In this document: positions 8,617 through 61,608 of the stretch, in pieces
Layout: each line of letters begins with the position of its first letter
Position numbering within the stretch: the first letter of the stretch is position 1
Assembly: GCF_003334785.1 (NCBI RefSeq)
Contig: NZ_QOWV01000008.1
Direction: 5' to 3' (one strand)
DNA length: 64,000 nt
DNA from: Escherichia coli
GTDB taxonomy: Bacteria; Pseudomonadota; Gammaproteobacteria; Enterobacterales; Enterobacteriaceae
Program-made: the position numbers and the translations under genes
The notes under the pieces: model-generated
The model's input: only the letters and a program-made list of their open reading frames with translations
What the model was told of the DNA's origin: nothing
The model's database searches: none

Positions 8617-9248
8617 TCTTCTGAATCACCGGGCGAAAAAATATAACTGAGTTACAAATAAGTACCAGTCGAATGAGTATTGTATTAAGAATTTTTGAGT
8701 ATCGCTGATACAACCAGAAAGCAATGCTAGCGCAATATTATAGGGCCAGCAATTGAGATTATTAGTAAAAGCATGTTAAGAATTAATTACCGAATTTATA
8801 TATTAATTATAGTAAGGCAATGAGCTATTTTTGATAGTAAAAATAAAACAAGTTGATTTGATATATTAAATGAACAAATTAATCTTGATGGCAGTCTGAT
8901 TATTGGTGAAGTTTATAGTCAGTTTTTTTCGCCAGCGGTTAAAGAAATAGAATAGTCGTATAAAAAAGGGTGTTCTGGGGCGAGTAAAACAACATCTTCA
9001 CCTTAATGGCGATACAGTTGGCTGAGAGTCAGCAGGGGGGCAAATCACCTGCAAATAAACACGGCGCATACTGGCGTGAATATCGCGGATGCGTTCGAGG
9101 ACAGAAGAACCGACAGGCGGATTCTTCAGCCGCTCATCGTCCATCACAAAACCTTAGACCAGGTATTCCTGAAGCCGATTGAATATTGAGCAGTAGAAAA
9201 TATCTGGATTGACAGTATTACAAGGGGTTGGAGAACGTCAGGAGAGGC

Positions 9249-9738: not shown

Positions 9739-12072
9739 TCAGGCTGTTGCAGGGTCGTCACATTTCGGCAGCCAGTCGCCGTAGCTTTCCTCTTTCAGCG
9801 TCAGGTTGGTCTGTATCCCCTGTTTGGTATGGCGCTTCTCGTAATTCAGTCCGTATTCCTTCAGCATCACCGGCAGCCCCAGCCCGAACATTTTCAGACT
9901 GAGTACATTCCGGTAGCCGTTTGCCTCCATGTAGGCCAGATAGGCGTGATAGAGGTATTTACGGTAATTACGCGGGATGATACTGGCGTTCCCCATATAC
10001 ATGCCGCTGGTCTGCGGCAGGGTTTCCAGATAGCCGATAAAATCAAACGTCGGGTCGGCATCCCGTTTGATGTTCAGTGCCTCGTCTGAGTTCTGCTGGG
10101 ACTGAAGCAGTGACCGGGCGAGCATCGGGTCGCTGAACTTCTGCATCAGGTAACGCACGATGACCGCCAGCTCGCGGGTGATTTTGTCCTTAAGCTGCGG
10201 GTCGCGCTCCTGCGGGGCTATCTGTTCCGGGAAGTGAATAATCACCCGCCGGCGTGACACGCCGCCGCTGCGGTCGGTGAAGCGCATCGGGTTATTGTTC
10301 ACGGCCAGAATCACCGCCGGGATGTGCGTGGAGTACGCATCCCGGTATTTCGGGTCAACGGACACCGCATCGCCGCCGGTGATGGCCTTGAGTCCGGCAC
10401 CGTCGCCGCTCCATTTTTCCTGGTCCGGCAGGCGTATCAGTGAGAAGCCAGTTAACGCGGCACGTTCACGCGGGGATTCCAGCGTCTCGATGGTGGCCGA
10501 CGTGGCGTTATCCTCACCGGCCAGCAGGGTGGCTATTTCGGCCATGATACTTTTGCCGCTGCCGCCGGGACCGGTCACCTCCAGAAAGAGCTGCCAGTCG
10601 TAGCGGTTTGCCAGCACCATAAACAGTGCGGCCAGAATCACGTCGCGTTTTTCCGCACGGCCACCGGCGGCACGGTCAAGCCAGCGCCAGAATGCGGGGG
10701 CGTGGGTTTCCAGCGTTTCACCTTCCACCGGCGGGGTGAAATCCACATCGCACAGGGCGCGCATCCAGTGTGACGGACTGTGCGGGTGGAACGTGCCGTT
10801 CTGCGTGTCGAGCACGCCGTTACGAAAGCCAATCAGGCGGCGGGAGGGGGCTTCCTGCTGCGGAATAATCAGCTTCAGGGTGTCCACCACGGAGGCCACC
10901 TTCCCGGAGGAGAACGGCGCGCGCAGACGCTGAAACAGCCCGGCCACATCCCGGGCAAAGTCCTGTGGTGGCAGCACCTTCCAGACACCATTTTCATAGC
11001 GGGACAGAAGCTGGCCGTTGGCATCGACCGCGAGCGCCTCGCCGTAATGCTCATAGATACGCATGGCCTTTTCGCTGGTACTCATGGCGGAAAACTCCGC
11101 TTCGCTCATGGTGTCGAACGGGCTTTCAGCCGGTGGCCGGATGGCATCATAAATGGCCTTACGGGTGGTTTCCCCGCCGTACTGCGTGAAGGCATCATTC
11201 CAGTCACCGAAGACCGGCGGCAGGGCAACAACGCCCTCACACGCATCTGCGGCTGCGGCGGCTTTTTTCTGGCCGTCACCGCTGAGGTCACGGTCTGCGG
11301 CAAGGACAATCTGACAGGCCGGATGCTTCTGCCGGGCAAGGCTGGCCAGAGAAAGGAGGTTCACGGAAGAAAGCGCCACCATCACCGTTTCACCGGTCAG
11401 GTGATGTACGGTAAGTGCGGTCGCGTATCCCTCCGCTATCCACAGACGTTTTCCGGCCTGATTCTGTCCTTCAAGGGTGTGACAGGTGCCCCTGACCTGT
11501 CCGCCTTTCAGGGTGCGCTTACGGCCGTCAGCACTGATTAACTGAAGGTTAACCAGTTCGCCGCTGTCGTCATACAGTGGCACCACAAGGTCACCGGCGC
11601 GCCAGCTCACGCCACCGGCTCTGTGTGTGCCGGTCAGCATCCGGCATTCCCGGCCGGGAAAGCCCTTGCGGGTCAGGTAGGCGTTACCGGTTCCGGGACG
11701 GGTTTTCGCCATCAGGGTTTGTGCCAGTGCGGCGGCGTTCTTCCGGGCGGCTTCTGTTTCAGCACCGGCGGCGGCCGTCACTGCCGGGTCAGCCGGGGGC
11801 AGGCAGCCGGTCACGGCAGCCACCTTTGCGGCCGCGTCGGACGGGGAAACACCAAACACCTTTTCAACCAGTTTCAGGCCGTCACCGGCACCACACTGAT
11901 TGCAGTACCAGGTGCCGCGCCCCTCCCTGTCATCAAAACGGAAACGGTCACTTCCGCCACAGACCGGACAGGGCTGATGACGGTTTTTCAGCACCTGAAT
12001 CCCCAGCGACGGGAGAATACGCGGCCAGTGGCCGAGCGCATGGCTGACGGTGGCGGTTACGTTCATTTTCAT
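9739..12072 (-). CDS. P4 alpha-type primase/helicase
   Basis: 777 aa, the size of P4 alpha; N-terminal CPVCGG...CNQCG zinc-binding primase motif; Walker A GPGGSGKS in C-terminal half. Confidence 0.9.
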   Translation of the reverse strand: MKMNVTATVSHALGHWPRILPSLGIQVLKNRHQPCPVCGGSDRFRFDDREGRGTWYCNQCGAGDGLKLVEKVFGVSPSDAAAKVAAVTGCLPPADPAVTAAAGAETEAARKNAAALAQTLMAKTRPGTGNAYLTRKGFPGRECRMLTGTHRAGGVSWRAGDLVVPLYDDSGELVNLQLISADGRKRTLKGGQVRGTCHTLEGQNQAGKRLWIAEGYATALTVHHLTGETVMVALSSVNLLSLASLARQKHPACQIVLAADRDLSGDGQKKAAAAADACEGVVALPPVFGDWNDAFTQYGGETTRKAIYDAIRPPAESPFDTMSEAEFSAMSTSEKAMRIYEHYGEALAVDANGQLLSRYENGVWKVLPPQDFARDVAGLFQRLRAPFSSGKVASVVDTLKLIIPQQEAPSRRLIGFRNGVLDTQNGTFHPHSPSHWMRALCDVDFTPPVEGETLETHAPAFWRWLDRAAGGRAEKRDVILAALFMVLANRYDWQLFLEVTGPGGSGKSIMAEIATLLAGEDNATSATIETLESPRERAALTGFSLIRLPDQEKWSGDGAGLKAITGGDAVSVDPKYRDAYSTHIPAVILAVNNNPMRFTDRSGGVSRRRVIIHFPEQIAPQERDPQLKDKITRELAVIVRYLMQKFSDPMLARSLLQSQQNSDEALNIKRDADPTFDFIGYLETLPQTSGMYMGNASIIPRNYRKYLYHAYLAYMEANGYRNVLSLKMFGLGLPVMLKEYGLNYEKRHTKQGIQTNLTLKEESYGDWLPKCDDPATA

Positions 12073-14604: not shown

Positions 14605-14676
14605 TCTGCAATGCGTCGTGTTGTTGTCCGGTGTACGTCACAATTTTCTTAACCTGAAGTGACGAGGAGCCGGAAA

Positions 14677-15411
14677 ATGTCTGACAACACCATCCCTGAA
14701 TATCTGCAACCCGCACTGGCACAACTGGAAAAGGCCAGAGCCGCCCACCTTGAGAACGCCCGACTGATGGATGAGACCGTCACGGCCATTGAACGGGCAG
14801 AGCAGGAAAAAAATGCGCTGGCGCAGGCCGACGGAAATGACGCTGATGACTGGCGCACAGCCTTTCGTGCAGCCGGTGGTGTCCTGAGCGACGAGCTGAA
14901 ACAGCGCCACATTGAGCGCGTGGCACGCCGGGAGCTGGTACAGGAATATGACAATCTGGCCGTGGTGCTGAATTTTGAACGTGAACGCCTGAAAGGGGCG
15001 TGTGACAGCACGGCTACCGCCTACCGGAAGGCACATCATCACCTTCTGAGTCTGTATGCAGAGCATGAGCTGGAACACGCCCTGAATGAAACCTGTGAGG
15101 CGCTTGTCCGGGCAATGCATCTGAGCATTCTGGTACAGGAAAATCCGATCGCCAACACCACCGGCCATCAGGGCTACGTCGCACCCGATAAGGCTGTCAT
15201 GCAGCAGGTGAAATCATCGCTGGAACAGAAAATTAAACAGATGCAAATCAGCCTCAGCGGCGAGCCGGTTCTCCGGCTGACCGGACTGTCAGCGGCAACA
15301 CTTCCGCACATGGATTATGAGGTGGCAGGCACACCGGCACAGCGCAAGGTGTGGCAGGACAAAATAGACCAGCAGGGAGCAGAGCTTAAGGCCAGAGGAC
15401 TGCTGTCATGA
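14677..15411 (+). CDS. sid: Sid-like capsid size-determination protein
   Basis: 244 aa from ATG 14677 preceded by GAGGAG; alanine-rich coiled-coil protein; first gene of a sid-delta-psu operon. Confidence 0.75.
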   Translation: MSDNTIPEYLQPALAQLEKARAAHLENARLMDETVTAIERAEQEKNALAQADGNDADDWRTAFRAAGGVLSDELKQRHIERVARRELVQEYDNLAVVLNFERERLKGACDSTATAYRKAHHHLLSLYAEHELEHALNETCEALVRAMHLSILVQENPIANTTGHQGYVAPDKAVMQQVKSSLEQKIKQMQISLSGEPVLRLTGLSAATLPHMDYEVAGTPAQRKVWQDKIDQQGAELKARGLLS

Positions 15412-15981: not shown

Positions 15982-16554
15982 ATGGAAAGCACAGCCTTAC
16001 AGCAGGCCTTTGACACCTGTCAGAATAACAAAGCAGCATGGCTGCAACGCAAAAATGAGCTGGCTGCGGCCGAACAGGAATATCTGCGGCTTCTGTCAGG
16101 AGAAGGCAGAAACGTCAGTCGCCTGGACGAATTACGCAATATTATCGAAGTCAGAAAATGGCAGGTGAATCAGGCCGCCGGTCGTTATATTCGTTCGCAT
16201 GAAGCCGTTCAGCACATCAGCATCCGCGACCGGCTGAATGATTTTATGCAGCAGCACGGCACAGCACTGGCGGCGGCACTGGCACCGGAGCTGATGGGCT
16301 ACAGTGAGCTGACGGCCATTGCCCGAAACTGTGCCATACAGCGTGCCACAGATGCCCTGCGTGAAGCCCTTCTGTCCTGGCTTGCGAAGGGTGAAAAAAT
16401 TAATTATTCCGCACAGGATAGCGACATTTTAACGGCCATTGGATTCAGACCTGACGCGGCTTCGGTGGATGACAGCCGTGAAAAATTCACCCCTGCGCAG
16501 AACATGATTTTTTCGCGTAAAAGTGCGCAACTGGCATCACGTCAGTCTGTGTAA
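15982..16554 (+). CDS. psu: Psu polarity-suppression protein
   Basis: 190 aa, MESTALQQAFDTCQNNKAAWLQRKNELAAAEQEY..., recalled as P4 Psu. Confidence 0.8.
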   Translation: MESTALQQAFDTCQNNKAAWLQRKNELAAAEQEYLRLLSGEGRNVSRLDELRNIIEVRKWQVNQAAGRYIRSHEAVQHISIRDRLNDFMQQHGTALAAALAPELMGYSELTAIARNCAIQRATDALREALLSWLAKGEKINYSAQDSDILTAIGFRPDAASVDDSREKFTPAQNMIFSRKSAQLASRQSV

Positions 16555-18269: not shown

Positions 18270-18301
18270 TTAAGCATTGTAATTATATTTGATTTTTTCT
18301 A

Positions 18302-18335
18302 CAGGCTTGGACGGAATCATATAGCTCCAAGCCTG
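18302..18335. terminator. bidirectional hairpin between the convergent cargo genes
   Basis: caggcttgga (18302..18311) pairs with tccaagcctg (18326..18335); flanked by T-rich sequence. Confidence 0.5.
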
Positions 18336-18370
18336 TTGTGTCGGTATCAAAAAGAAAGTGATATTATTGT

Positions 18371-19744
18371 TTATCTAATATATTTTGTTACTTCCATATT
18401 ATCTTCATCGTCAAAAGAGTACTCAACCATCATACGACTATTTTTACCTGACTTAATATCTTGAAGCCAAGCTGAGGCAACCCTAGGGTCTAAATGCTGT
18501 TTTCTACTCAGCTCATTATTTTTTAGCCTATCAAGCCTTATTGCTCTTTGAAGAGTTTTATCGATGTAGTCTTCCAAATCAATGGACAACCTCCTTTTTG
18601 GATATAAATATTGGTATTCATCACACAATAGTACTCCTGGTAATTTAATTTCGCGTAGGTCGAAAGAATACCAACTATAGTTTTTAGACTCATTAGCTAA
18701 TTCCGAAACTAGATGAGCCCCATTTTGTTGTAAGAGAGATATTTTGTGATCGATGCTAATGTCAGATATTTCTCTTAAAGACTCAAAATGCATGTTTTCG
18801 TAGATAGTATTTAATAAAATACTCTCCATGTAAGAGTAAAAATCAGTACCATCGATGATAATATTAGTTTCATTGTAGACTGCAAGAGACATAAGATATA
18901 TGAAGAAAACTGCGGGAGTACTATTACCTCTGTTTATATCAAGTCTAAGGGAGTTGACATAATCAGGCGGAGAGTTTGAGAAAATTTCTCTTATTAACCA
19001 GTCTGGAATAGTGGTTCTTGTTAGAATGTCAGCGTTCAAACTTGAACGACATAAAAAAATACACATCTTTAATTTTAATTTTATTGAAAATGATGGGAAT
19101 AAATGATCGATGAAAGATAAAATACATGTATACTCTGCTAAGTCTGTTTGTTGCAACTTTTCTTTTATTTCATTTTCAAGCATTTTTAATTTAAAAAAAT
19201 CATTCCTTTTTTCTAATATTTCCCAATGAAATAATTGCTCCTGAGCGTACGCATGCCCCTCTAAAATAGCTAGCATGCTTAAAGGAATGTTTAGGATTTC
19301 TTGATAATTATTAACATACCCAAAGAAATGGACTCTGATATACACACCCATATCGTCATCATATTGTAATGATGCTTTAATATTTTTATAATTTAATTTA
19401 TTAGTGCTGTTGTTTTTGAAGTGATAATGTAAAGTAATTTCAGTATCATCAACTAATAAATTATCAAAAGCCTCCTTTGTTTCATATTTAAAATAGTTAT
19501 ATAGCCGACATGAATAATTTAACCCCCAGTGAGTTGTAGAACAATCAAGTAAATGGATTGTTTCATGGAGATATGTTTTATAAAATTCAATTTCGCTATC
19601 ATCAAAATCATATATGCTTTTACTGTCTATGATATTTTGTGCTTGCGGTAAACTTATATTTAATTCATCGTTTGAAATCTCAATTAAATGTGATGAAAAA
19701 TCATAAGAACCCAATGTTTTGCTGTTAAATATACATCCGCTCAT
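18371..19744 (-). CDS. hypothetical cargo protein B, HExxH motif (possible zinc metallopeptidase)
   Basis: 457 aa, AT-rich; N-terminal YLHETIHLLDCSTTH; start ATG overlaps the integrase stop (ATGA at 19741..19744). Confidence 0.6.
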   Translation of the reverse strand: MSGCIFNSKTLGSYDFSSHLIEISNDELNISLPQAQNIIDSKSIYDFDDSEIEFYKTYLHETIHLLDCSTTHWGLNYSCRLYNYFKYETKEAFDNLLVDDTEITLHYHFKNNSTNKLNYKNIKASLQYDDDMGVYIRVHFFGYVNNYQEILNIPLSMLAILEGHAYAQEQLFHWEILEKRNDFFKLKMLENEIKEKLQQTDLAEYTCILSFIDHLFPSFSIKLKLKMCIFLCRSSLNADILTRTTIPDWLIREIFSNSPPDYVNSLRLDINRGNSTPAVFFIYLMSLAVYNETNIIIDGTDFYSYMESILLNTIYENMHFESLREISDISIDHKISLLQQNGAHLVSELANESKNYSWYSFDLREIKLPGVLLCDEYQYLYPKRRLSIDLEDYIDKTLQRAIRLDRLKNNELSRKQHLDPRVASAWLQDIKSGKNSRMMVEYSFDDEDNMEVTKYIR

Positions 19745-20916
19745 AGCAAATCCCCTAAAAGATAATCAGAGTACCATTGAATCATCGTTTTCCTTTGAGA
19801 AAAATATTGTGCGTGATTATAGGTTCCTCGGATATTGTTCTTATCAACATGTGCTAATTGCATTTCAATCCAGGTACTATCAAATCCCTGTTCATGTAGG
19901 ATTGTTGACATTGTATGTCTAAAACCGTGACCTGTAGCACGTCCTTTGTAACCAAGTAACTCAATCACTTGTGAAACACTTTCTTTTGAAATTGGTTTGC
20001 TACGATTGTTCCTGCCAATAAAAATATAGGGATAATGGCCGGTGATAGGCTTTAGCTGTTTAAAGAGGTCTACCACCTGAGTAGACAAAGGTACAATATG
20101 TGGTCTGCGCATTTTCATACGTTCCGCTGGTATCTCCCATATACCTTTTTCGAGGTCTACTTCTTCCCACGTAGCAAAGCGCATCTCCTGCGTTCTTACA
20201 CCAGTCAGCATGACTATCTTCGTAGCATTTTTGGTGATGATGCTACCGGTATAAGCTTCGAGATCCCGAATAAAATGAGGCAATTCTTCGGCAGATAGAA
20301 ATGGATGATGTTTTTGCTTAGGAACGGCCAGAGCGATGGCTAAATCAGGCGCAGGATTGTATTCAGCGCGGCCAGTTATGATTGCGTAGCGATAAACCTC
20401 ACCGCACCTCTGACGTACCTTACGTGTTTTCTCTAGTGCTCCACGCTTCTCTATTCGTCGCAACACTTCAAGAAGTTCTAAGGGTTTGATTTCACTAATA
20501 GGACGTTTACCAATGAACGGGAAAACATCTTGCTCAAATGTTTTAATAATTTCTTCGCGGTAGGCAAGTGTCCAGCGATCGGCTTTATTTGAGTGCCACT
20601 CACGACATATAGCCTCGAATGAGTTTTCTGTTGAGAGCTGCTGTGCCAGCTTTTGGGCTTTACGTTCTTCCACTGGGTCTATGCCGTTTGCAACCTGCTT
20701 CCGAGCTGTATCGCGTTTCTCACGTGCTTCAGCTAGGCTCACAAGGTCGTAGCTACCAAATGACATTAACCGCGCTTTTCCGGCAAAGCGGAAACGGAAA
20801 CGCCAGCCCTTCGAGCCATCGGGATTGATAAGCAATGACAGGCCCTGCCCGTCGTTCAATGTGTATGGCTTGTCTTGGGGCTTTGCTCGTTTGATTTGTA
20901 TATCTGTAAGTGCCAT
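19741..20916 (-). CDS. int: P4-family tyrosine integrase
   Basis: 391 aa; N-terminus MALTDIQIKRAKPQDKPYTLNDGQGLSLLINPDGSKGWRFRFRFAGK typical of P4-type integrases; C-terminal catalytic region with HGFRHT...Y; adjacent to the tRNA. Confidence 0.9.
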   Translation of the reverse strand: MALTDIQIKRAKPQDKPYTLNDGQGLSLLINPDGSKGWRFRFRFAGKARLMSFGSYDLVSLAEAREKRDTARKQVANGIDPVEERKAQKLAQQLSTENSFEAICREWHSNKADRWTLAYREEIIKTFEQDVFPFIGKRPISEIKPLELLEVLRRIEKRGALEKTRKVRQRCGEVYRYAIITGRAEYNPAPDLAIALAVPKQKHHPFLSAEELPHFIRDLEAYTGSIITKNATKIVMLTGVRTQEMRFATWEEVDLEKGIWEIPAERMKMRRPHIVPLSTQVVDLFKQLKPITGHYPYIFIGRNNRSKPISKESVSQVIELLGYKGRATGHGFRHTMSTILHEQGFDSTWIEMQLAHVDKNNIRGTYNHAQYFSQRKTMIQWYSDYLLGDLL

Positions 20917-21073: not shown

Positions 21074-21098
21074 ATTTTGGCGGAAGATCACAGGAGTC
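21074..21098. repeat. attR core overlapping the 3' end of selC
   Basis: Same 25-nt sequence as 9249..9273. Confidence 0.85.
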
Positions 21099-21172
21099 GA
21101 ACCTGCCCGGGACCGCTGGCGGCCCCAACTGGATTTGAAGTCCAGCCGCCTCACCGGAGACGACGATCTTCC
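21078..21172 (-). tRNA. selC: tRNA-Sec (selenocysteine, UCA anticodon)
   Basis: Reverse complement reads ggaagatcgtcgtctccggtgaggcggctggacttcaaatccagttggggccgccagcggtcccgggcaggttcgactcctgtgatcttccgcca, the 95-nt E. coli selC sequence. Confidence 0.95.
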
Positions 21173-49213: not shown

Positions 49214-49260
49214 CTTTTTTCTGCTTAACTTAACCAGACAATCACACAAAAGAGTCGCTA

Positions 49261-50331
49261 GTGGAAAAGCCATTTCGAAAAATCCTGGTCATAAAGATGC
49301 GATATCACGGAGATATGTTATTAACTACTCCTGTAATCAGTACACTCAAGCAGAATTATCCCGACGCAAAAATCGATATGCTGCTTTACCAGGATACAAT
49401 TCCGATTTTATCTGAAAACCCAGAAATTAATGCACTCTATGGTATAAGCAATAAAGGTACGGGAACATTCGATAAAATTAAAAATGCACTTTCACTGATA
49501 AAAACTCTGCGTGCGAATAATTACGACCTGGTCATTAATCTTACGGATCAGTGGATGGTGGCCCTGCTGGTACGTTGTTTACCTGCTCGTATGAAAATAT
49601 CGCAGCTTTATGGTCATCGGCAGCATGGCATTTGGAAAAAAAGCTTTACACACTTAGCGCCTATACACGGTACACATATTGTTGAGCGTAATTTGTCGGT
49701 CCTTGAGCCATTAGGTATTACCGATTTTTATACTGAAACAACCATGAGTTACGCCGAGGATTGCTGGAAGAAAATGCGCCAGGAATTAGATGCACTGGGC
49801 GTGAAAGATCATTATGTCGTCATCCAGCCGACAGCCAGACAGATATTTAAGTGCTGGGACAACGATAAATTTTCTATGGTTATCGATGCGTTGCAACATC
49901 GTGGTTATCAGGTTGTGCTGACTTGTGGCCCTTCGGCAGATGATCTCGCTTGCGTAGATGAAATTGCACGAGGCTGCCAAACAAAACCTATTACCGGCCT
50001 TGCCGGTAAAACACGTTTTCCTGAACTGGGCGCATTAATTGATCATGCAGTGCTCTTTATTGGTGTGGATTCTGCGCCGGGGCATATTGCAGCGGCTGTG
50101 AAGACGCCAGTTATTAGCCTGTTTGGGGCCACTGATCATGTATTCTGGCGTCCATGGACCGAGAATATTATTCAGTTCTGGGCGGGGAATTATCAAAAAA
50201 TGCCTACCCGGCACGAACTTGACCGCAACAAAAAATATCTTTCTGTTATTCCAGCGGAAGATGTCATTGCCGCTACGGAAAAGCTGTTGCCAGAAGATGC
50301 ACCTTCAGCTGACAGGAATGCGCAATTATGA
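49261..50331 (+). CDS. waaQ: LPS heptosyltransferase III (GT9)
   Basis: 356 aa from GTG; FRKILVIKMRYHGDMLLTTPV aligns with N-termini of WaaC/WaaF. Confidence 0.8.
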   Translation: MEKPFRKILVIKMRYHGDMLLTTPVISTLKQNYPDAKIDMLLYQDTIPILSENPEINALYGISNKGTGTFDKIKNALSLIKTLRANNYDLVINLTDQWMVALLVRCLPARMKISQLYGHRQHGIWKKSFTHLAPIHGTHIVERNLSVLEPLGITDFYTETTMSYAEDCWKKMRQELDALGVKDHYVVIQPTARQIFKCWDNDKFSMVIDALQHRGYQVVLTCGPSADDLACVDEIARGCQTKPITGLAGKTRFPELGALIDHAVLFIGVDSAPGHIAAAVKTPVISLFGATDHVFWRPWTENIIQFWAGNYQKMPTRHELDRNKKYLSVIPAEDVIAATEKLLPEDAPSADRNAQL

Positions 50332-51452
50332 TCGTGGCATTTTGCTTATATAAATATTTTCCATTTGGTGGGCTACAGCGTGACTTTATGCGTATTGCCT
50401 CAACAGTTGCCGCACGGGGCCACCATGTTCGGGTATATACACAGTCGTGGGAAGGCGATTGCCCGGAAGCATTTGAGCTTATTCGCGTACCGGTTAAATC
50501 CCATACTAACCATGGACGTAATGCAGAATATTATGCCTGGGTTCAAAACCATCTGAAGGCACATCCCGCTGATCGCGTTGTTGGCTTTAATAAGATGCCT
50601 GGGCTGGATGTTTATTTTGCCGCCGATGTCTGTTATGCCGAGAAAGTGGCGCAAGAAAAGGGATTTTTCTATCGTTTAACATCGCGCTATCGCCATTATG
50701 CTGCATTCGAGCGAGCGACTTTCGAACATGGTAAATCGACGAAACTTATGATGTTGACCGATAAGCAAATCGCCGATTTTCAGAAGCATTACCAAACTGA
50801 ACCAGAACGTTTTCAAATTCTTCCCCCTGGTATCTATCCTGACAGAAAATACAACGCGCAAATCCCAAACAGTCGTGAAATTTATCGCCAGAAAAATGGC
50901 ATCACTGAACAACAAAACTTATTGCTGCAGGTTGGTTCAGATTTTGGTCGTAAAGGTGTGGATCGCTCAATTGAAGCTTTGGCATCGTTACCAGAATCGT
51001 TACGCCATAATACGTTGTTGTTTGTTGTTGGCCAGGATAAACCGCGTAAATTTGAAGTGCTGGCAGAAAAACTCGGTGTGCGTAGTAAAGTGCATTTCTT
51101 TTCCGGGCGGAATGATGTGTCTGAATTAATGGCAGCCGCTGATTTATTAATGCATCCCGCTTATCAGGAGGCTGCAGGTATTGTTCTCCTTGAGGCAATT
51201 GCCGCGGGATTACCTGTGTTGACGACTGCGGTATGCGGATACGCACACTATATCACAGATGCTAATTGTGGAACGGTCATCGCTGAACCTTTCTCCCAGG
51301 AACAATTAAATGACGTTTTACGTAAAGCGTTAACTCAATCTCCATTGCGCATGGCCTGGGCGGAGAATGCTCGGTATTACGCCGATACTCAGGATTTATA
51401 CAGCCTGCCGGAGAAAGCGGCAGATATCATTACAGGTGGTTTAGATGGTTGA
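50328..51452 (+). CDS. waaG: LPS glucosyltransferase I (GT4)
   Basis: 374 aa, GT4 E-x7-E motif, position after waaQ. Confidence 0.85.
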
Positions 51453-52242
51453 ATTAGAAGAGCCACTTGCCACACTCTGGCGTGGTAAAGATGCCTTTGC
51501 AGAAGTTAAAAAACTGAATGGCGAGGTCTTCCGTGAACTGGAGACGCGTCGCACATTACGCTTTGAACTGGCCGGCAAAAGTTATTTCCTCAAATGGCAC
51601 AAAGGGACGACCCTAAAGGAGATTATAAAAAATCTGCTCTCATTGCGGATGCCCGTTTTAGGTGCAGACAGAGAGTGGCACGCTATTCATCGACTGCATG
51701 ATGTCGGTGTTGATACGATGCACGGAATAGGATTTGGTGAAAAAGGGTTAAATCCATTAACTCGCACATCATTTATTATTACCGAAGATCTCACTCCCAC
51801 AATTAGCCTTGAAGATTATTGTGCAGATTGGGCGGTCAACCCGCCTGATGTACATATTAAGCGTATGCTGATCGCGCGTGTGGCAACCATGGTGCGCAAA
51901 ATGCATGCAGCAGGGATTAATCACCGTGATTGTTATATCTGCCACTTTTTACTCCATTTGCCATTTACTGGCCGGGAAGATGAATTAAAAATTTCGGTTA
52001 TCGATCTGCACCGGGCACAGATACGTGCAAAAGTACCACGTCGTTGGCGGGATAAAGATTTGATTGGTTTATATTTCTCATCAATGAATATTGGTCTGAC
52101 GCAGAGAGATATCTGGCGATTTATGAAGGTTTATTTTGGGATGCCTTTACGCGATATTTATAGACTTGAGATTGATTTACTTAAAAAGGCAAGGATTAAA
52201 GCAGGAAAAATAGAAGCAAGAACAATAAGAAAAAACTTGTAA
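51445..52242 (+). CDS. waaP: LPS core heptose(I) kinase
   Basis: 265 aa kinase-like protein, overlaps waaG stop. Confidence 0.85.
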
Positions 52243-52274
52243 ATAGTATTTTATTACAAAAAGGGATTCTAAAA

Positions 52275-53255
52275 TTGTTGAAATATAGAAACTTCGTTGC
52301 TAAGAAGAAAAATTTATACCAAAACGAAGTGTCGTATGTTAAAAATTTACATATTGCACTATGCTTTGACCGTGAATTCATAATGCCAGCGGGTGTTGCA
52401 TTATATTCAATTATATCCAACAATAGACATATTAACCTTCATTTTCACCTTCTTATATCAGGCATAGAAGAAAAGGAGTGTTCAGCTTTTTACGAACTAG
52501 AAGGTCCTAATACATCAATATCTGTATATTATATAACTGATAAATTTGACATTAATCCGGATACATTAGTTCTTGGTATTCCTTTATCAACATGTTTACG
52601 TTTTTTAATCCCAGAAGTTATTGATGATAAAATAAATAAGATACTTTATCTTGACTGTGATGTCATATGTAATGGTCCTTTAGATGAACTGGTTGATTAT
52701 AATTTAAATGCTGATATTGCATGTGTAATTCCAGATTCGCCAGAAATGCAAGAACGTGTAAAAAAATTAGACTATGGCATTGAGTTTATTAATTATTTTA
52801 ATGCCGGGGTTATGTTTATTAATACCAGCGAATGGAAAAAAAATAATATAACACAAAAAGCGTTAGAAATGATCAACAGTGGAAAAGTATATAGGTATGC
52901 AGATCAGGATGTGCTCAATATTTTACTTAATGGACGAGTGCATTACCTTGATAAGAAGTACAATAATAAGACAACATTGTCAGTACGATGTGATGAAGAA
53001 CAAAAAAACTTGCCCAACACAATTATAATGCATTATGTTACCCAGAATAAACCATGGTACAAAATATTTAGAGCACAAAATTTTGATCATTATTTTTCAA
53101 ATTCTCCTTGGAAGAACCATAAAAGAAATCTAGCTCCATCATCAAGTGAGATTAGGTTAAAGTCTAAAGTTTTTTGGCTAGAAGGAAAATATTGTAAAGC
53201 CATTTCTTATTATTATAAGTATTTACTTGTTAAATTATTTGGCTTAAAGATTTAG
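52275..53255 (+). CDS. GT8-family LPS core glycosyltransferase (waaS position)
   Basis: 326 aa, AT-rich; GT8 motifs YLDCDVIC, FNAGVMFIN, HYVTQNKPW; identity within the waa family not resolved. Confidence 0.6.
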   Translation: MLKYRNFVAKKKNLYQNEVSYVKNLHIALCFDREFIMPAGVALYSIISNNRHINLHFHLLISGIEEKECSAFYELEGPNTSISVYYITDKFDINPDTLVLGIPLSTCLRFLIPEVIDDKINKILYLDCDVICNGPLDELVDYNLNADIACVIPDSPEMQERVKKLDYGIEFINYFNAGVMFINTSEWKKNNITQKALEMINSGKVYRYADQDVLNILLNGRVHYLDKKYNNKTTLSVRCDEEQKNLPNTIIMHYVTQNKPWYKIFRAQNFDHYFSNSPWKNHKRNLAPSSSEIRLKSKVFWLEGKYCKAISYYYKYLLVKLFGLKI

Positions 53256-53268
53256 CTGGAATGAAATT

Positions 53269-54348
53269 ATGAAAATAGCCTTTATTGGCGAAGCTGTTTC
53301 TGGATTTGGCGGCATGGAAACAGTCATTCGTGATGTTATTACTACCTTCAGGCAACAACATATCCAAAGTGAAATTTTTTTCTTTTGTCGTAATGACAAA
53401 ATGGATAAGGGATGGCTGGAAGGTATTAAGTACTCGTGTTCATTTTCCAATATTCGCTTAGGTTTTTTGCGTCGCGCGAAACATATTCATGCTTTAAGCA
53501 AATGGCTTCATGATTATCAGCCAGATGTTGTTATTTGTATTGACGTGATCTCGTGTTTGTATGCGGCCAAAGCTCGTAAAAAATCGGGGATTGATGTACC
53601 TGTATTTTCATGGCCGCATTTTTCTTTAGATCATAAAAAACATGCCGAATATATCACCTGTGCCGACTATCATTTAGCCATCAGCTCTGGTATTAAACAG
53701 CAAATGATTAGCCGGGGTGTACCAGAATCGACAATAAACGTTATTTTTAATCCCGTTGAGGCGAAAAATTCAGTCATTCCTGCACCCGGGGAAGGCGAAA
53801 CGGCAACATTCATTTATGTTGGGCGCATGAAATTTGAAGGCCAAAAGCGCGTAAAAGATCTGCTTGATGGCTTATCACAAGTGCAAGGTGACTGGAAACT
53901 TCATGTATTGGGAGATGGCTCCGATTTCGAAAAATGCCAGGCTTATGGTAGAGGATTAAATATTGATGATCGAATTGTCTGGTATGGTTGGCAACAACAT
54001 CCCTGGAAATTAGTTCAGCAAGATATTAAAAAAGTGAGTGCATTATTACTCACGTCATCTTTTGAAGGTTTCCCAATGACTCTACTTGAAGCCTTGTCGT
54101 GGGGGATCCCTTGTATCAGTGCAGATTGTGTCTCCGGGCCTGTTGATATCATTCAGCCTGATGTTAATGGTCATTTATATCAACCGGGGGATATGACCGG
54201 TTTTGTTGCTCTTCTCAATAAATACATAGCCGGTGAAATTCACATCGCACATGAAAAAATTCCGGCGTCGATCGATAAATTTTATCAACCGAAATATTAC
54301 GACAGATTGCAAAAGATAATTATTTCTGTTATTTCCCGGAGGAAATAA
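53269..54348 (+). CDS. waaB: LPS 1,6-galactosyltransferase (GT4)
   Basis: 359 aa MKIAFIGEAVSGFGGMETVIRDVITTFRQQ, recalled as WaaB. Confidence 0.8.
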   Translation: MKIAFIGEAVSGFGGMETVIRDVITTFRQQHIQSEIFFFCRNDKMDKGWLEGIKYSCSFSNIRLGFLRRAKHIHALSKWLHDYQPDVVICIDVISCLYAAKARKKSGIDVPVFSWPHFSLDHKKHAEYITCADYHLAISSGIKQQMISRGVPESTINVIFNPVEAKNSVIPAPGEGETATFIYVGRMKFEGQKRVKDLLDGLSQVQGDWKLHVLGDGSDFEKCQAYGRGLNIDDRIVWYGWQQHPWKLVQQDIKKVSALLLTSSFEGFPMTLLEALSWGIPCISADCVSGPVDIIQPDVNGHLYQPGDMTGFVALLNKYIAGEIHIAHEKIPASIDKFYQPKYYDRLQKIIISVISRRK

Positions 54349-55367
54349 TGCAGCAGGTTTTTTTCCAGGAGACTGAGTTTCTCAATTCGGTTATTGATTA
54401 TAATCATAAAATAGAAGCAGAAAATCTTTGTCTGGATATTGCTTATGGGACTGACAAAAATTTTCTTTTTGGATGCGGAATATCGATTGCTTCAATATTA
54501 AAATATAATGAAGGAAATCAATTATGCTTTCATATTTTTACTGATTATTTCGGTGATGACGATCGCAAATATTTTGATGCCCTGGCCAGGCAATATAAAA
54601 CAAGAATTAAGATATATTTAATTAATGGTGATCGACTCCGTTCATTACCCTGCACCAAGAACTGGACTCATGCTATTTATTTTCGTTTTGTTATCGCCGA
54701 TTACTTTTTTAATAAAGCACCCAAAGTTCTTTATCTGGATGCAGATATTATTTGTCAGGGAACTATAGAACCACTTATCAATTACACGTTTTCTGAACAT
54801 ACAGTCGCAATGGTTGTTACAGAAGGACAAAAAGACTGGTGGGCAAAACGTGCTCATTCGTTAGGTGTTGCTGGGATTGCTAATGGTTACTTTAACTCCG
54901 GTTTTTTACTGATTAATACTAATCAATGGACGAATGAGCGGGTTTCTGCACGGGCCATTGCAATGTTAAGTGATCCAGAGATAGTCAAAAAAATAACACA
55001 TCCTGATCAGGATGTATTAAATATGTTATTGGCAGACAAACTTGTTTATGCTGATATTAAATATAACACTCAGTTTAGTTTAAATTATCAACTAAAAGAA
55101 AGTTTTAAAAACCCAGTAACTAACGATACAGTTTTTATTCATTATATTGGTCCAACTAAACCCTGGCATGACTGGGCCTGGGATTATCCAATATCACAAG
55201 CTTTTATGGCGGCAAAAAATGCTTCACCATGGAAGGATACTGCGTTATTGAAACCGGTTAATAGTAATCAATTAAGATACAGTGCTAAACATATGTTGAA
55301 AAAAAAGCAATATATCAAAGGATTTGGCAACTATCTTTTGTATTTTATAAAAAAGCTAAAGCATTAA
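54348..55367 (+). CDS. waaO: LPS alpha-1,3-glycosyltransferase (GT8), WaaO/WaaI type
   Basis: 339 aa, GT8 motifs YLDADIIC, FNSGFLLIN, HYIGPTKPW; follows waaB. Confidence 0.65.
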   Translation: MQQVFFQETEFLNSVIDYNHKIEAENLCLDIAYGTDKNFLFGCGISIASILKYNEGNQLCFHIFTDYFGDDDRKYFDALARQYKTRIKIYLINGDRLRSLPCTKNWTHAIYFRFVIADYFFNKAPKVLYLDADIICQGTIEPLINYTFSEHTVAMVVTEGQKDWWAKRAHSLGVAGIANGYFNSGFLLINTNQWTNERVSARAIAMLSDPEIVKKITHPDQDVLNMLLADKLVYADIKYNTQFSLNYQLKESFKNPVTNDTVFIHYIGPTKPWHDWAWDYPISQAFMAAKNASPWKDTALLKPVNSNQLRYSAKHMLKKKQYIKGFGNYLLYFIKKLKH

Positions 55368-55530
55368 TACTGATAATCTATACTCTAAATAATTCGAGTT
55401 GCAGGACAAAAAGCCAGTGGCGTTTTGAGGAACGCTTGCGTTGGCCCTGAAATGCCGAGTAACTCGCCGATGCAGCACATGCAACTTGAAGTATAACGAG
55501 TATATAAAGTAATGATATAAGGATAGCCTT

Positions 55531-56547
55531 GTGAACTCATTTCCTGCCATAGAGATAGATAAAGTTAAAGCCTGGGATTTTAGGCTTATTGATGAAAATA
55601 CTGCTGAAAGTTTAAATGTTGCCTATGGTGTCGATTCCAATTATCTTGATGGTGTAGGTGTTTCCATTACTTCAATTGTCATTAATAATCGACATGTTAA
55701 TCTTGATTTTTATATTATTGCTGATGTTTATAACGACGATTTCTTTCAAAAAGTTGAGAAACTTGCTGAGCAATACCAATTAAGAATCACACTTTATAGA
55801 ATAAATACTGATAATCTTCAGTGCCTGCCTTGTACACAAGTCTGGTCAAGAGCAATGTACTTCCGTTTATTTGCTTTTCAATTATTGGGAGTAACACTTA
55901 ATCGTTTGCTTTATCTTGATGCCGATGTAGTTTGTAAGGGAAATATTAGTCAACTATTGCATTTAGAGTTTAATGGAGCGGTGGCTGCAGTAGTCAGGGA
56001 TGTAGACCCAATGCAGGAAAAGGCGGTAGTCAGATTATCTGATCCTGAACTTCGGGGGCAGTATTTTAATTCTGGTGTCGTTTACTTAGACCTAAAAAAA
56101 TGGACAGAAGCAAAACTAACCGAAAAAGCACTGTCTATTCTTATGAGTAAAGATAGTATTTATAAGTATCCTGACCAGGACGTTATGAATGTCCTACTAA
56201 AAGGGATGACAATATTCCTGCCACGTGAGTTCAATACTATATATACAATAAAAAGTGAGTTAAAAGATAAAACGCATCAAAAATATAAAGAGTTGATAAA
56301 AGAGGATACTCTTCTTATTCATTATACTGGGGCCACCAAGCCGTGGCACAAATGGGCAATTTATCCATCGGTAAAATACTATAAAATAGCTTTAGAAAGA
56401 TCCCCCTGGAAAGATGACTCACCACGAGATGCAAAATCAATTATTGAATTCAAAAAAAGATATAAACATCTGTTAGTGCAACATCATTATATCTCAGGAC
56501 TCATTGCAGGAGTGTGTTATCTTTGCCGAAAATATTACCGTAAATAA
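55531..56547 (+). CDS. waaJ: LPS alpha-1,2-glycosyltransferase (GT8), WaaR/WaaJ type
   Basis: 338 aa, GT8 motifs YLDADVVC, FNSGVVYLD, HYTGATKPW. Confidence 0.6.
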   Translation: MNSFPAIEIDKVKAWDFRLIDENTAESLNVAYGVDSNYLDGVGVSITSIVINNRHVNLDFYIIADVYNDDFFQKVEKLAEQYQLRITLYRINTDNLQCLPCTQVWSRAMYFRLFAFQLLGVTLNRLLYLDADVVCKGNISQLLHLEFNGAVAAVVRDVDPMQEKAVVRLSDPELRGQYFNSGVVYLDLKKWTEAKLTEKALSILMSKDSIYKYPDQDVMNVLLKGMTIFLPREFNTIYTIKSELKDKTHQKYKELIKEDTLLIHYTGATKPWHKWAIYPSVKYYKIALERSPWKDDSPRDAKSIIEFKKRYKHLLVQHHYISGLIAGVCYLCRKYYRK

Positions 56548-56564
56548 CATTTAACTGGTTTAAC

Positions 56565-57263
56565 ATGATTCAGAAGAATAAAATCAAAGATTTAGTTGTT
56601 TTTACCGATGAAAATAACTCAAAGTATCTCAATGTATTAAATGACTTTCTTTCTTATGATATTAATATCATCAAAGTTTTTCGTTCTATAGATGATACAA
56701 AAGTCATGCTTATTGATACCGATTACGGTAAATTGATACTTAAAGTTTTTTCGCCTAAAGTAAAACGCAACGAACGTTTCTTTAAATCTCTTTTAAAGGG
56801 AGATTATTATGAACGCCTTTTTGAGCATACTCAAAAAGTGCGTAACGAGGGGCTACATTCTCTCAATGATTTTTATTTGTTGGCAGAACGGAAAACATTA
56901 CGTTTTGTCCATACTTATATCATGCTTATCGAATATATCGATGGCGTAGAGTTGTGTGATATCCCCGATATTGATGAAACTTTAAAAAATAAAATTCAAC
57001 AATCAATTCGTTCATTACACGAACACGGTATGGTATCTGGTGATCCTCACCGCGGTAATTTTATTATTGAAAATGGTGAAGTACGCATTATTGATCTTTC
57101 AGGAAAACGGGCATCTGCACAACGTAAAGCGAAAGATCGTATTGATTTAGAGCGACATTATGGTATTAAGAATGAGGTTAAAGATCTCGGTTATTATCTT
57201 TTAGTTTATCGTAAAAAAATACGTAATCTTATGCGGCGTTTGAAAGGGAAGCCAGCACGATAA
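56565..57263 (+). CDS. waaY: LPS core heptose(II) kinase
   Basis: 232 aa, kinase-like (GDPHRGNFII), position. Confidence 0.75.
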   Translation: MIQKNKIKDLVVFTDENNSKYLNVLNDFLSYDINIIKVFRSIDDTKVMLIDTDYGKLILKVFSPKVKRNERFFKSLLKGDYYERLFEHTQKVRNEGLHSLNDFYLLAERKTLRFVHTYIMLIEYIDGVELCDIPDIDETLKNKIQQSIRSLHEHGMVSGDPHRGNFIIENGEVRIIDLSGKRASAQRKAKDRIDLERHYGIKNEVKDLGYYLLVYRKKIRNLMRRLKGKPAR

Positions 57264-57334
57264 AGTAAAAGTCTTACATTTAAACGTCTTCGTCAGGACA
57301 TTTCTATGCGGAGTTCTTATTTCACAGGTTTATC

Positions 57335-58144
57335 ATGAAGAATATTAGATACATTGACAAAAAAGATGTTGAAAACCTGATAGAAAGTAAAACGTCTGAT
57401 GATGTTATTATTTTTCTTTCCGGCCCCACATCGCAAAAAACACCATTGTCAGTGCTGCAGACAAGGGATGTTATTGCTGTCAATGGTTCTGCACAATATC
57501 TATTAAGTCATAATATTATTCCCTATATTTATGTACTTACCGATGTTCGCTTTTTACATCAACGGCGTGATGATTTTTATAAATTTAGCCAGAGAAGTCG
57601 TTATACCATCGTAAATGTTGACGTTTATGAACATGCTTCTGAAGAAGATAAGCGGTACATCCTTCAAAACTGCCTGGTACTACGTTCATTTTACCGCAGA
57701 GAAAAAGGTGGATTGATCAAGAAGATCAAGTTTAATATTTTGAGCCGAATTCATAAAGAGCTCCTGATCTCTGTACCTTTTTCTAAAAAAGGTCGTCTGG
57801 TTGGCTTTTGCAAGGATATTAACCTCGGTTATTGTTCATGCCATACCGTTGCTTTTGCTGCAATCCAAATAGCCTATTCGCTGAAGTATGCTCGTATTAT
57901 CTGTTCAGGCCTTGATTTAACGGGTAGCTGTTCGCGTTTCTATGATGAAGATAAGAATCCTATGCCCTCAGAGTTGATTCGGGATTTATTCAAAATTTTA
58001 CCATTTTTCCGTTTTATGCGTGAAAATATAGAAGATATCAATATTTATAATTTATCCGACGATACTGCAATTCAATATGATATTATTCCCTATATGAAAA
58101 TATCCGAAATTGAAGAGCCGTGTGTTTATGAAAAAATAAGCTAA
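57335..58144 (+). CDS. waaZ: LPS core biosynthesis protein (WaaZ position)
   Basis: 269 aa, AT-rich, between waaY and the terminal GT4 gene. Confidence 0.55.
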   Translation: MKNIRYIDKKDVENLIESKTSDDVIIFLSGPTSQKTPLSVLQTRDVIAVNGSAQYLLSHNIIPYIYVLTDVRFLHQRRDDFYKFSQRSRYTIVNVDVYEHASEEDKRYILQNCLVLRSFYRREKGGLIKKIKFNILSRIHKELLISVPFSKKGRLVGFCKDINLGYCSCHTVAFAAIQIAYSLKYARIICSGLDLTGSCSRFYDEDKNPMPSELIRDLFKILPFFRFMRENIEDINIYNLSDDTAIQYDIIPYMKISEIEEPCVYEKIS

Positions 58145-58196
58145 TATTTTATATGTGTTTATTACGTGTTATAAATTATATTGGAGTTGGCTAATA

Positions 58197-59339
58197 ATGA
58201 TTAAAAAAATAATATTTACCGTCACACCAATATTTTCTATACCGCCAAAAGGAGCTGCAGCGGTTGAAACATGGATTTATCAGGTCGCAAAAAGACTTTC
58301 GATTCCAGTAACTATCGCCTGTATTCGAAACGAAGGTTACCCAACCTACACAAAAGTAAATGATCACTGTGATATTCACTACATTGGTTTTAGTCGAGTC
58401 TATAAACGACTTTTCCAAAAGTGGACTCGACTTGATCCTGTGCCATATTCTCAGCGTATTTTAAATACCCAACCTAAAAACACTGATCCGAAAGACTCTG
58501 TTATTGTTATCCACAATAGCATGAAGCTGTATAAACAGATTCGTAGCAGAAGCCCTCACGCGCAGCTAGTTATGCATCTTCATAATGCTTTCGAGCCAGG
58601 TGAGTTAGACAAAAATGCAAAGATAATTGTTCCTAGCCAGTTTCTTTTCGATTTCTATTCGGAAAAAATGCCTGATGCAAATATTGCTATTGTGCCTAAT
58701 GGTTTTTGTTCTGAATCGTATGAACAAAATAATACTGAAGATTTGAGGCAGAAACTGAACATTGATGCAAATGATACCGTGTTATTATTTGCAGGAAGGA
58801 TATCACCAGATAAAGGTTGCCTGATGCTTATGGAGGCTTTTAATCAGCTGAATAAGATACAAGATAACCTCAAACTGGTGATTGTCGGAGATCCTTTTGC
58901 CAGTAAAAAAGGCGAAAAAGCTGAATATCAGAAAAAAGTTCTGGATGCAGCGAAAGCTATTGGAGCGCAATGCATTATGGCGGGTGGACAGCCTCCAGAG
59001 CAGATGCATAACTATTACCGTTTAGCAGATTTAGTTGTTGTTCCTTCTCAGGTAGAAGAAGCTTTTTGTATGGTAGCTGTTGAAGCGATGGCGGCAGGTA
59101 AACCAGTGCTTGCCAGTCAAAAAGGTGGAATTAGTGAGTTTGTTCTGGAAGGAATTACAGGCTATCACCTTGCAGAGCCTATGACATCTGAAAGTATTCT
59201 CGCGGATATTAAGCGCGTTTTGGCGGATGCTGACAGAGCTCAAATTGCTAAAAATGCCCGAAATTTTGTTTTCTCAAAATATAGCTGGGAACATGTTACT
59301 CAGCGTTTTGAAGCACAAATACAAGACTGGTTTGGTTAA
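58197..59339 (+). CDS. waaK: GT4 glycosyltransferase, WaaK-like
   Basis: 380 aa from ATG 58197 (GGAG upstream); GT4 E-x7-E motif EAFCMVAVEAMAAGKPV; last gene before waaL. Confidence 0.6.
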   Translation: MIKKIIFTVTPIFSIPPKGAAAVETWIYQVAKRLSIPVTIACIRNEGYPTYTKVNDHCDIHYIGFSRVYKRLFQKWTRLDPVPYSQRILNTQPKNTDPKDSVIVIHNSMKLYKQIRSRSPHAQLVMHLHNAFEPGELDKNAKIIVPSQFLFDFYSEKMPDANIAIVPNGFCSESYEQNNTEDLRQKLNIDANDTVLLFAGRISPDKGCLMLMEAFNQLNKIQDNLKLVIVGDPFASKKGEKAEYQKKVLDAAKAIGAQCIMAGGQPPEQMHNYYRLADLVVVPSQVEEAFCMVAVEAMAAGKPVLASQKGGISEFVLEGITGYHLAEPMTSESILADIKRVLADADRAQIAKNARNFVFSKYSWEHVTQRFEAQIQDWFG

Positions 59340-59357
59340 AAATTATTGGATTTGAAG

Positions 59358-59394
59358 AGCCTGCCTGAACTTAATGTCAGGCAGGCTTTTTTTT
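59358..59394. terminator. bidirectional terminator between waaK and waaL
   Basis: agcctgcctgaacttaatgtcaggcaggct hairpin followed by TTTTTTTT; overlaps waaL stop. Confidence 0.7.
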
Positions 59395-60610: not shown

Positions 60611-60648
60611 TGCTTCTCCACCATCTTAAATAATATATAACGTATTAA

Positions 60649-61605: not shown

Positions 61606-61608
61606 CCG

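Follow-up and report, generated by a model that had tools for sequence, protein, structure and literature searches.

Which protein is carried as cargo next to the integrase gene of a P4-like satellite of Escherichia coli, and what might it do there? The question is raised by a window of 64,000 nucleotides (assembly GCF_003334785.1, contig NZ_QOWV01000008.1; positions refer to this whole stretch, unless a locus number is given), in which a satellite integrated at the gene for tRNA-Sec (selC) harbours two neighbouring cargo genes, here called A and B, between psu and the integrase gene int. Gene B is a promising candidate for a phage defence of a new, protease-based kind, because an invariant zinc-protease motif is combined with a location at an anti-phage gene site of mobile elements. 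That its product is a metallohydrolase is judged likely, and a role against phages is slightly favoured; the complete proposal, by which B is a soluble, cytoplasmic, zinc-dependent metallohydrolase, likely an endopeptidase, which represents a new zincin-like family and serves as stand-alone anti-phage accessory cargo, is about evenly poised between right and wrong.

Gene B is an uninterrupted open reading frame (ORF), extending from ATG to stop on the minus strand, while the plus strand over the same interval (18371-19744) gives a translation riddled with stops. The preliminary description of this DNA, prepared by inspection of the window, had located the 457-aa frame at the right coordinates and with the right length, leaving its strand unsaid. 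The product is identical to RefSeq WP_001406847.1. Comparison with a 73%-identical orthologue gives a ratio of nonsynonymous to synonymous substitution rates (dN/dS) of 0.08, with values of 0.12 for A and 0.03 for int in the same comparison; gene B is under purifying selection. The protein contains neither a transmembrane segment nor a signal-like N-terminus, and is therefore probably cytoplasmic.

Close to the N-terminus, the segment YLHETIHLLDCSTTH (residues 58-72) contains an HExxH motif at residues 60-64. Taken by itself, one such motif is not significant, because 0.03 are expected by chance in a protein of this length and composition, and because 2 of the window's 54 open frames with a length of 200 aa or more carry one. 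The second belongs to the Sid-like ORF (14659-15411, plus strand); this HELEH, at about residue 138 of the frame, illustrates that the bare motif arises by chance. The motif of gene B becomes significant by virtue of its conservation across a protein family. When 1.84 billion cluster representatives (clusters at 50% identity) were searched exhaustively with a profile, 188 members of this family were identified at E<=1e-3, nearly all between 430 and 470 aa and sharing one architecture; a word-indexed search, even when based on a profile, retrieved merely 6-7 relatives. HExxH is found in every full-length representative, mostly as HExTH, with one HDxxH.

Conservation was evaluated on the alignment of 121 full-length homologues, whose mean column identity is 18%. 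In this set H60, H64, D67, G74 and E162 are invariant; E61, E169 and Y205 are conserved at 99%, W73 at 98%, A165 at 96%, P154 at 93%, E204 at 91% and T71 at 90%, the remainder being Ser at the last position. S156 is also conserved. The consensus of the stretch containing the motif is HExTHFLD. The motif residues are the most conserved positions of a family whose members are otherwise 14-34% identical, and the N-terminal half of the protein is better conserved than the C-terminal half (1.54 vs 0.90 bits). The motif announced in the preliminary description is thus present as described. The His a few residues further on, which had been taken for a third ligand, fares differently: H72 is replaced by Leu in 34%-identical homologues and is not among the columns conserved at 60% or above. 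Its distance from the motif is also not that of metzincins, and a metzincin identity was discarded.

A structural model was obtained with AlphaFold (AF2) from 121 sequences, with a mean predicted local distance difference test score (pLDDT) of 93 and a predicted template modelling score (pTM) of 0.91; an earlier model, built from 5 sequences, had a pLDDT of 49 and was discarded. In the model, HExxH lies inside a helix spanning residues 49-70 (pLDDT about 96-98), which corresponds to the conserved, alpha-helical HExxH by which zincins are recognised. The preliminary description had named two findings that would speak against its proposal, a motif not conserved in homologues and a motif not placed in a helix by structure prediction; the motif is both kept by the homologues and placed in a helix. 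The HExxH helix is followed by two further helices and by a three-stranded sheet (residues 119-129, 133-143 and 147-154), which runs directly into a helix, 157-179, bearing E162 and E169; the remainder is largely helical. Foldseek comparison against AFDB50 gave 67 matches at E<=1e-3. Among the matches listed, nearly all are 'Uncharacterized protein' entries of about 450 aa belonging to the same family, from Pseudomonas, Acinetobacter, Burkholderia, Deinococcus, Paenibacillus, Flavobacterium and others. One of these relatives carries in UniProt the label 'EH_Signature domain'; the corresponding Pfam family is unmatched in all family members, and the label was taken as a mis-annotation or as an effect of a Zorya neighbour. 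Comparison of the model with solved structures revealed no resemblance, and the zincin core fold was not recognised by structure comparison. By its own scores the model is therefore a confident one, though unlike any solved structure.

H60, H64 and E162 would be expected to lie close together in space. In the proposed metal site, H60 and H64 would act as two metal ligands and E61 as the general base, with D67 as a second-shell partner, while E162, located on a downstream helix as expected of a Glu-type third ligand, may complete the coordination. E169 and Y205 would be further catalytic or second-shell residues, a transition-state-stabilising role being plausible for Y205, and the conserved P154-x-S156, located where the strand ahead of the Glu helix ends, may form a substrate-binding edge. 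The resulting HExTHxxD...ExxA pattern fits a gluzincin-like signature. Thermolysin (HELTH) and neprilysin/PepO (HEITH) share the Thr of HExTH, and in the M13 motif, HEITHGFD, the Asp at His+3 supports a zinc-binding His; the family therefore resembles M13 in both the Thr and the Asp. In gluzincins the third zinc ligand comes from a Glu helix (ExxxD/ExxAD), and the ExxxD helices of M13 and of thermolysin (M4) are similar to E162xxA165. Characterised enzymes combining a helix-borne HExxH with a downstream Glu are nearly all peptidases (clan MA). The topology departs from that of canonical zincins, about 100 residues separating the motif from E162.

Searches against collections of known families revealed no relatives for the protein. 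No Pfam-A family is matched by gene B, even at E<=10, and scanning the 121 relatives at E<=1e-3 produced one spurious 'B domain' match in a single relative and no other family. NCBIfam gave no match, PADLOC-DB v2 gave 0 defence families at E<=1 for B and A alike, the match to PHROG is marginal, and searches of PDB sequences with profiles of 5 and 121 sequences returned noise only. The view that the protein is unrecognised outside its motif was thus borne out. Since no match was found in Pfam, NCBIfam, PADLOC or PDB, membership in the ImmA/IrrE (M78), Lit (U49), M13, M4 or other peptidase families is unsupported by sequence. For Lit (Peptidase_U49) a direct comparison was also made: alignment of the family with E. 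coli K-12 Lit by hhalign covered only 12 columns, around HExxH, with a probability of 0.9%, and Pfam U49 gave no match. No paper naming B or its family was found in the literature, a Vibrio parahaemolyticus integron defence-library study being outside the coverage of this search. None of Pfam, NCBIfam, PADLOC and RefSeq has a name for the family, which is new, as is possibly its fold; the kind of system, protease cargo in a phage-defence hotspot, is known.

The 90%-identity cluster containing B consists of 774 member sequences; the named ones among the sequences listed belong to E. coli and Klebsiella. A Salmonella fragment, 97% identical, is placed in a cluster of its own. All are labelled 'hypothetical'. 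The gene is found in 10 of 5,426 complete E. coli genomes.

Genomic contexts of the homologues were collected, partly by a search for related loci seeded with 15 aligned sequences. In the chromosomal integron of V. parahaemolyticus the homologue is a single-gene cassette of 1,496 bp, bounded by attC-like repeats and accompanied by cassettes of the toxin-antitoxin, acetyltransferase, kinase and MazG types. In Idiomarina, as well as in a metagenome, it is immediately upstream of tnsA-tnsB-tnsC-tniQ; this Tn7-like element adjoins a truncated Mg-chelatase (comM-like) gene. In Photobacterium it immediately precedes a tniQ-like gene accompanied by Csy2-, Csy3- and Csy4-like genes, an arrangement resembling a type I-F CRISPR-associated transposon (CAST). 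Other homologues adjoin QatA, QatB and QatC (Colwellia), stand beside a cyclase of the cyclic-oligonucleotide-based anti-phage signalling system (CBASS; Acinetobacter pittii), or are located between the genes for a 1,276-aa SIR2_2 protein and a patatin, 115 bp downstream of that for a 944-aa AAA_22/SEC-C protein (locus L029, 3051-7359). One relative shares its island with a D5-type primase and an integrase, and one overlaps a UPF0175/DUF3368(PIN) toxin-antitoxin pair. In a distant branch (L025, 6216-8356; L026, 5479-7619) the gene overlaps by 4 bp an upstream gene for a DUF3427-HNH nuclease, within an island containing ZorC, ZorD and AbiGi; the two genes may form a nuclease/peptidase operon.

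All-against-all comparison of the ORFs from eight loci revealed no conserved neighbour, the B homologue alone being common to them. This fits the proposal, because the protein would work alone. About 9 of 12 independent contexts are cargo sites of mobile elements or adjoin known defence genes, a count that is anecdotal and carries no statistic. Judged from these gene neighbourhoods, the distribution would be that expected of an autonomous, defence-associated accessory module.

The locus in the window is of the same kind. The satellite contains, in order, the alpha primase-helicase, sid-like, delta, psu, A, B and int genes, followed by tRNA-Sec, with yicJ and yicI beyond, and gene B is found where the cargo of P4 is found, between psu and int (Table 1). 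Rousset et al. 2022 (PMC9122126) showed that anti-phage systems are stored in the psu-int interval of P4, and it overwhelmingly holds defence systems (PMC9122126; preprint 10.64898/2026.02.27.708500). The exact pair is reported in Table S1 of PMC9122126 as 'hypothetical + hypothetical', WP_001406847 + WP_000742539. Unannotated cargo of this interval shares with B the locus and the pattern of swapped-in, low-GC DNA (Rousset et al. 2022, PMC9122126; 10.64898/2026.02.27.708500), and 6 of 8 randomly picked unannotated P4 hotspot loci were found to be phage-protective (2026 preprint 10.64898/2026.02.27.708500). In the window, GC content is 31% in an island at positions of about 17-20 kb vs about 45-55% in the flanks.

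Table 1. Features of the satellite and of gene B, with positions in the 64,000-nucleotide window
Feature	Position	Strand	Remarks
alpha primase-helicase	9739-12072	minus	
psu (polarity suppression protein)	15982..16554	+	left boundary of the psu-int cargo hotspot; RefSeq annotation of identical locus
cargo gene A, 429 aa, WP_000742539.1	16980..18269	+	convergent with B
inverted repeat	18301..18336	.	perfect, 11 bp, 14-nt loop; between convergent A and B; repeat search
gene B, 457 aa, WP_001406847.1	18371..19744	minus	ATG-to-stop ORF; RefSeq 'hypothetical protein'
E204-Y205 codons	19130..19135	minus	nearly invariant pair; Y205 possibly transition-state-stabilising
E162-G-H-A165-Y-A-Q-E169 codons	19238..19261	minus	E162, candidate third metal ligand
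HExxHxxD codons, H60-E61-T-I-H64-L-L-D67	19544..19567	minus	putative zinc-binding His pair, catalytic Glu, second-shell Asp
HExxH (H60-E61-x-x-H64) codons	19553-19567	minus	in gene B
P4-type tyrosine integrase (int)	19741..20916	minus	NCBIfam PRK09692, E=1e-86
tRNA-Sec (selC)	21078..21172	minus	satellite attachment site; ARAGORN

The stop codon of int and the start codon of B overlap as ATGA, an arrangement also present in a second P4-like element (L010), and a Shine-Dalgarno-like AGGGGA is located 8 nt upstream of the start of B. On this basis B is co-transcribed with int, and translational coupling of the two genes is probable. The inverted repeat between the convergent A and B could be the shared transcript end of the two genes; lacking a T-run, it is not a canonical intrinsic terminator, and it was not called by the terminator scan. 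In the AT-rich stretch around A and B, promoter and terminator scans gave nothing above shuffled background.

Two other features of the window were recorded. A short RhuM-family pseudogene fragment annotated in RefSeq (about 9013-9174; L001, 4414-4575), located just outside the alpha-primase end of the satellite, may be the remnant of an earlier selC island. A second low-GC stretch (32-40% GC at 52-61 kb) corresponds to the waa/rfa cluster for the lipopolysaccharide core (about 49260-62650), which includes RfaQ, a GT4 glycosyltransferase, RfaP, galactosyltransferases, a GlcNAc-transferase, RfaL ligase and RfaC, and is ordinary chromosomal content.

A mechanism can be sketched for a stand-alone protease. 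The better-conserved N-terminal half (approximately residues 1-240) would constitute the catalytic module, and the variable, helical C-terminal half would recognise the trigger or the substrate. B would be expressed with int from the satellite and would stay inactive until its variable C-terminal domain is engaged by a component of the phage; the activated protease would then cut either a phage protein or a host factor that is essential, and phage production would be blocked. B would act alone, by phage exclusion or abortive infection. The working model is Lit, the cell-death peptidase of the cryptic prophage e14, which excludes phage by cleaving EF-Tu once T4 late proteins appear. Like B, Lit is a single HExxH protein encoded on a degenerate mobile element beside an integrase gene, lit adjoining intE; unlike B, it is 297 rather than 457 aa long, and no homology between the two is detectable. 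A Lit-like abortive-infection scheme for B, drawn by analogy, is accordingly offered as a doubtful one.

Several observations weigh against B being a stand-alone defence protease. No peptidase family is matched by sequence in gene B or in its relatives, and the gene has no counterpart in PADLOC-DB. It is absent among the systems tested in PMC9122126 (PARIS and others), and it is not one of the systems Crouga, Bandua, Aernus, Toga, Reve and Hailong of preprint 10.64898/2026.02.27.708500, in whose synthesis datasets the A/B DNA was likewise not found. Some branches of the family are found in overlapping operons, with the HNH nuclease or with the PIN toxin-antitoxin pair. The tight coupling of B to int could indicate a role in the biology of the element itself. 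Finally, all 10 complete E. coli genomes carrying B also carry A.

The last point bears on the possibility that A and B form a two-gene system, in which a PD-(D/E)xK-type nuclease and a metallopeptidase cooperate, one sensing or regulating and the other executing; this is considered unlikely. The product of A matches no Pfam, PADLOC or NCBIfam family, and its match in PHROG is to phrog_14906, of unknown function (E=4e-135). In 11 homologues of A the residues D172...E185-x-K187 are invariant, as are D105, D113, D163 and R169, a signature suggestive of a PD-(D/E)xK-like nuclease. The pairing is maintained not only in the E. coli genomes mentioned above: the P4-like element L010 retains A and B at equal divergence (74% and 73% identity, respectively), and the overlap with a DUF3427-HNH gene in the distant branch associates a B relative with another nuclease. 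Against it, A and B are separate transcription units, because they are convergent, and each gene is found without the other. By tblastn, A stands beside B only in P4 loci, and at every other locus the B homologues (about 20-35% identity) occur without an A homologue, the one-gene integron cassette included. Conversely, A homologues of about 50% identity occupy the P2 gpA-portal hotspot without B, alone in Citrobacter and with an unrelated 456-aa partner in Serratia. In genome AP019856 (E. coli O8:H8 16F5M1D1; L002, 3418-4667) A is split and B intact. A and B are thus probably two independent cargo genes travelling together in this P4 allele, A not being an obligate partner; A may be a separate, uncharacterised, single-gene defence candidate.

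Candidate partners at other loci were also compared with the two genes. The 456-aa proteins adjoining A homologues in Serratia (L020) and in a metagenome (L021) are unrelated to B, and a 241-aa neighbour of the B homologue in Idiomarina is unrelated to A. The Serratia protein, encoded after the A homologue in a P2-like prophage of Serratia fonticola (L020, 7771-9141), is similar to B in size, has no Pfam match and contains no HExxH. Within E. coli, the length of A differs by 1 nt close to its 5' end in three further genomes, and B is frameshifted into two ORFs in one genome, SCU-115 (L032, 3091-4463). The split genes and the 1-nt differences could reflect either real decay or assembly indels in AT-rich runs.

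Alternatively, B could be a hydrolase or toxin having a role other than defence, such as maintenance of the element or addiction, manipulation of the host or of the helper P2, or counter-defence, perhaps on a non-peptide substrate. Consistent with this are the coupling to int, the relative overlapping a toxin-antitoxin pair, the relatives, several in number, placed directly beside transposition genes (tnsA, tniQ), and a fold unmatched by any known peptidase. This is held to be quite unlikely: characterised enzymes combining the HExxH helix and the downstream Glu are, as noted, nearly all peptidases, the relatives of B repeatedly adjoin Qat, Zorya, CBASS and SIR2 genes, and the P4 psu-int locus is occupied overwhelmingly by defence (PMC9122126; preprint 10.64898/2026.02.27.708500).

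A third explanation is close to what had initially been proposed, namely that B is a peptidase of the ImmA/IrrE type. As such, or as a CapP-like protease, it would have a regulatory function: upon a stress signal it would cleave a repressor, or another regulator, either of the element or of a defence operon nearby. Like B, ImmA/IrrE/CapP proteins have the HExxH zinc-peptidase motif and often occur in association with mobile elements and defence operons, and a connection to DNA-binding proteins is seen in one branch of the family: a 558-aa relative from an Acinetobacter venetianus prophage (L016, 7575-9251), encoded near an integrase gene, has an N-terminal Arc domain (Pfam Arc, E=4e-11). The first 246 residues of this protein match phrog_228, 'Arc-like repressor' (E=7e-155), and the HExxH region of the B family is represented in this profile by positions of about 93 to 251; the label therefore masks a peptidase-like domain. 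Two copies of the Arc-fused form are present on prophage contigs in IMG/VR, whereas GenBank phage genomes gave Arc-domain matches only and no full-length relative of B. Co-transcription with int would also suit a regulator, as would the homologue beside a CBASS cyclase, some CBASS operons being reportedly under CapH/CapP control.

Direct comparisons speak against such an assignment. Peptidase_M78 (PF06114 / COG2856) is matched neither by B (E<=10) nor by its 121 relatives, in which, apart from the spurious match mentioned, no other Pfam family is matched either, and the model has no match to solved structures of the IrrE/ImmA type. The pairing with a repressor is also missing, no helix-turn-helix (HTH)/Xre gene adjoining B, whose neighbours are the overlapping upstream int and the convergent A, and as a lone integron cassette B has no operon to regulate. 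ImmA-type peptidases are, in addition, usually smaller than 457 aa, and P4 immunity is RNA-based rather than repressor-based. A regulatory protease of this type is consequently rated very unlikely. Of the initial proposal, the zinc metallopeptidase in a defence-type module is upheld by the conserved, helix-borne HExxH, the invariant E162 and the location in a defence hotspot, while the ImmA/IrrE assignment was abandoned, together with the third His.

The remaining alternative, a chance HExxH in a non-enzymatic protein, can be set aside as effectively refuted: about 3% of proteins with this length and composition would be expected to have such a motif, and a second ORF of the window has one, but in the B family its residues are the invariant ones.

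The stand-alone protease cargo therefore remains as the reading around which the significance of the family can be discussed. At least 188 clusters at 50% identity, whose members seen are all 'hypothetical', belong to it, and defence-cargo sites of four independent kinds contain it. In its most extensive form, which is tentative and more doubtful than not, B would found a new clan of zinc metallopeptidases on a novel scaffold and, at the same time, a new single-gene anti-phage system, carried by satellites, integron cassettes, Tn7/CAST elements and prophages across Proteobacteria and beyond, in which a variable C-terminal domain senses a phage component and unleashes the cleavage of a target, either of the host or of the phage. 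Few effector proteases have been characterised, though protease-based phage exclusion has been known since Lit. B is a compact candidate (1.4 kb), with a clear catalytic signature and a confident predicted structure lacking a solved relative. If B is active, the defence repertoire would gain a new peptidase family or clan, tractable for finding the trigger and the substrate of the protease, and B would explain a recurrent, unannotated allele of the P4 hotspot in E. coli, Klebsiella and Salmonella.

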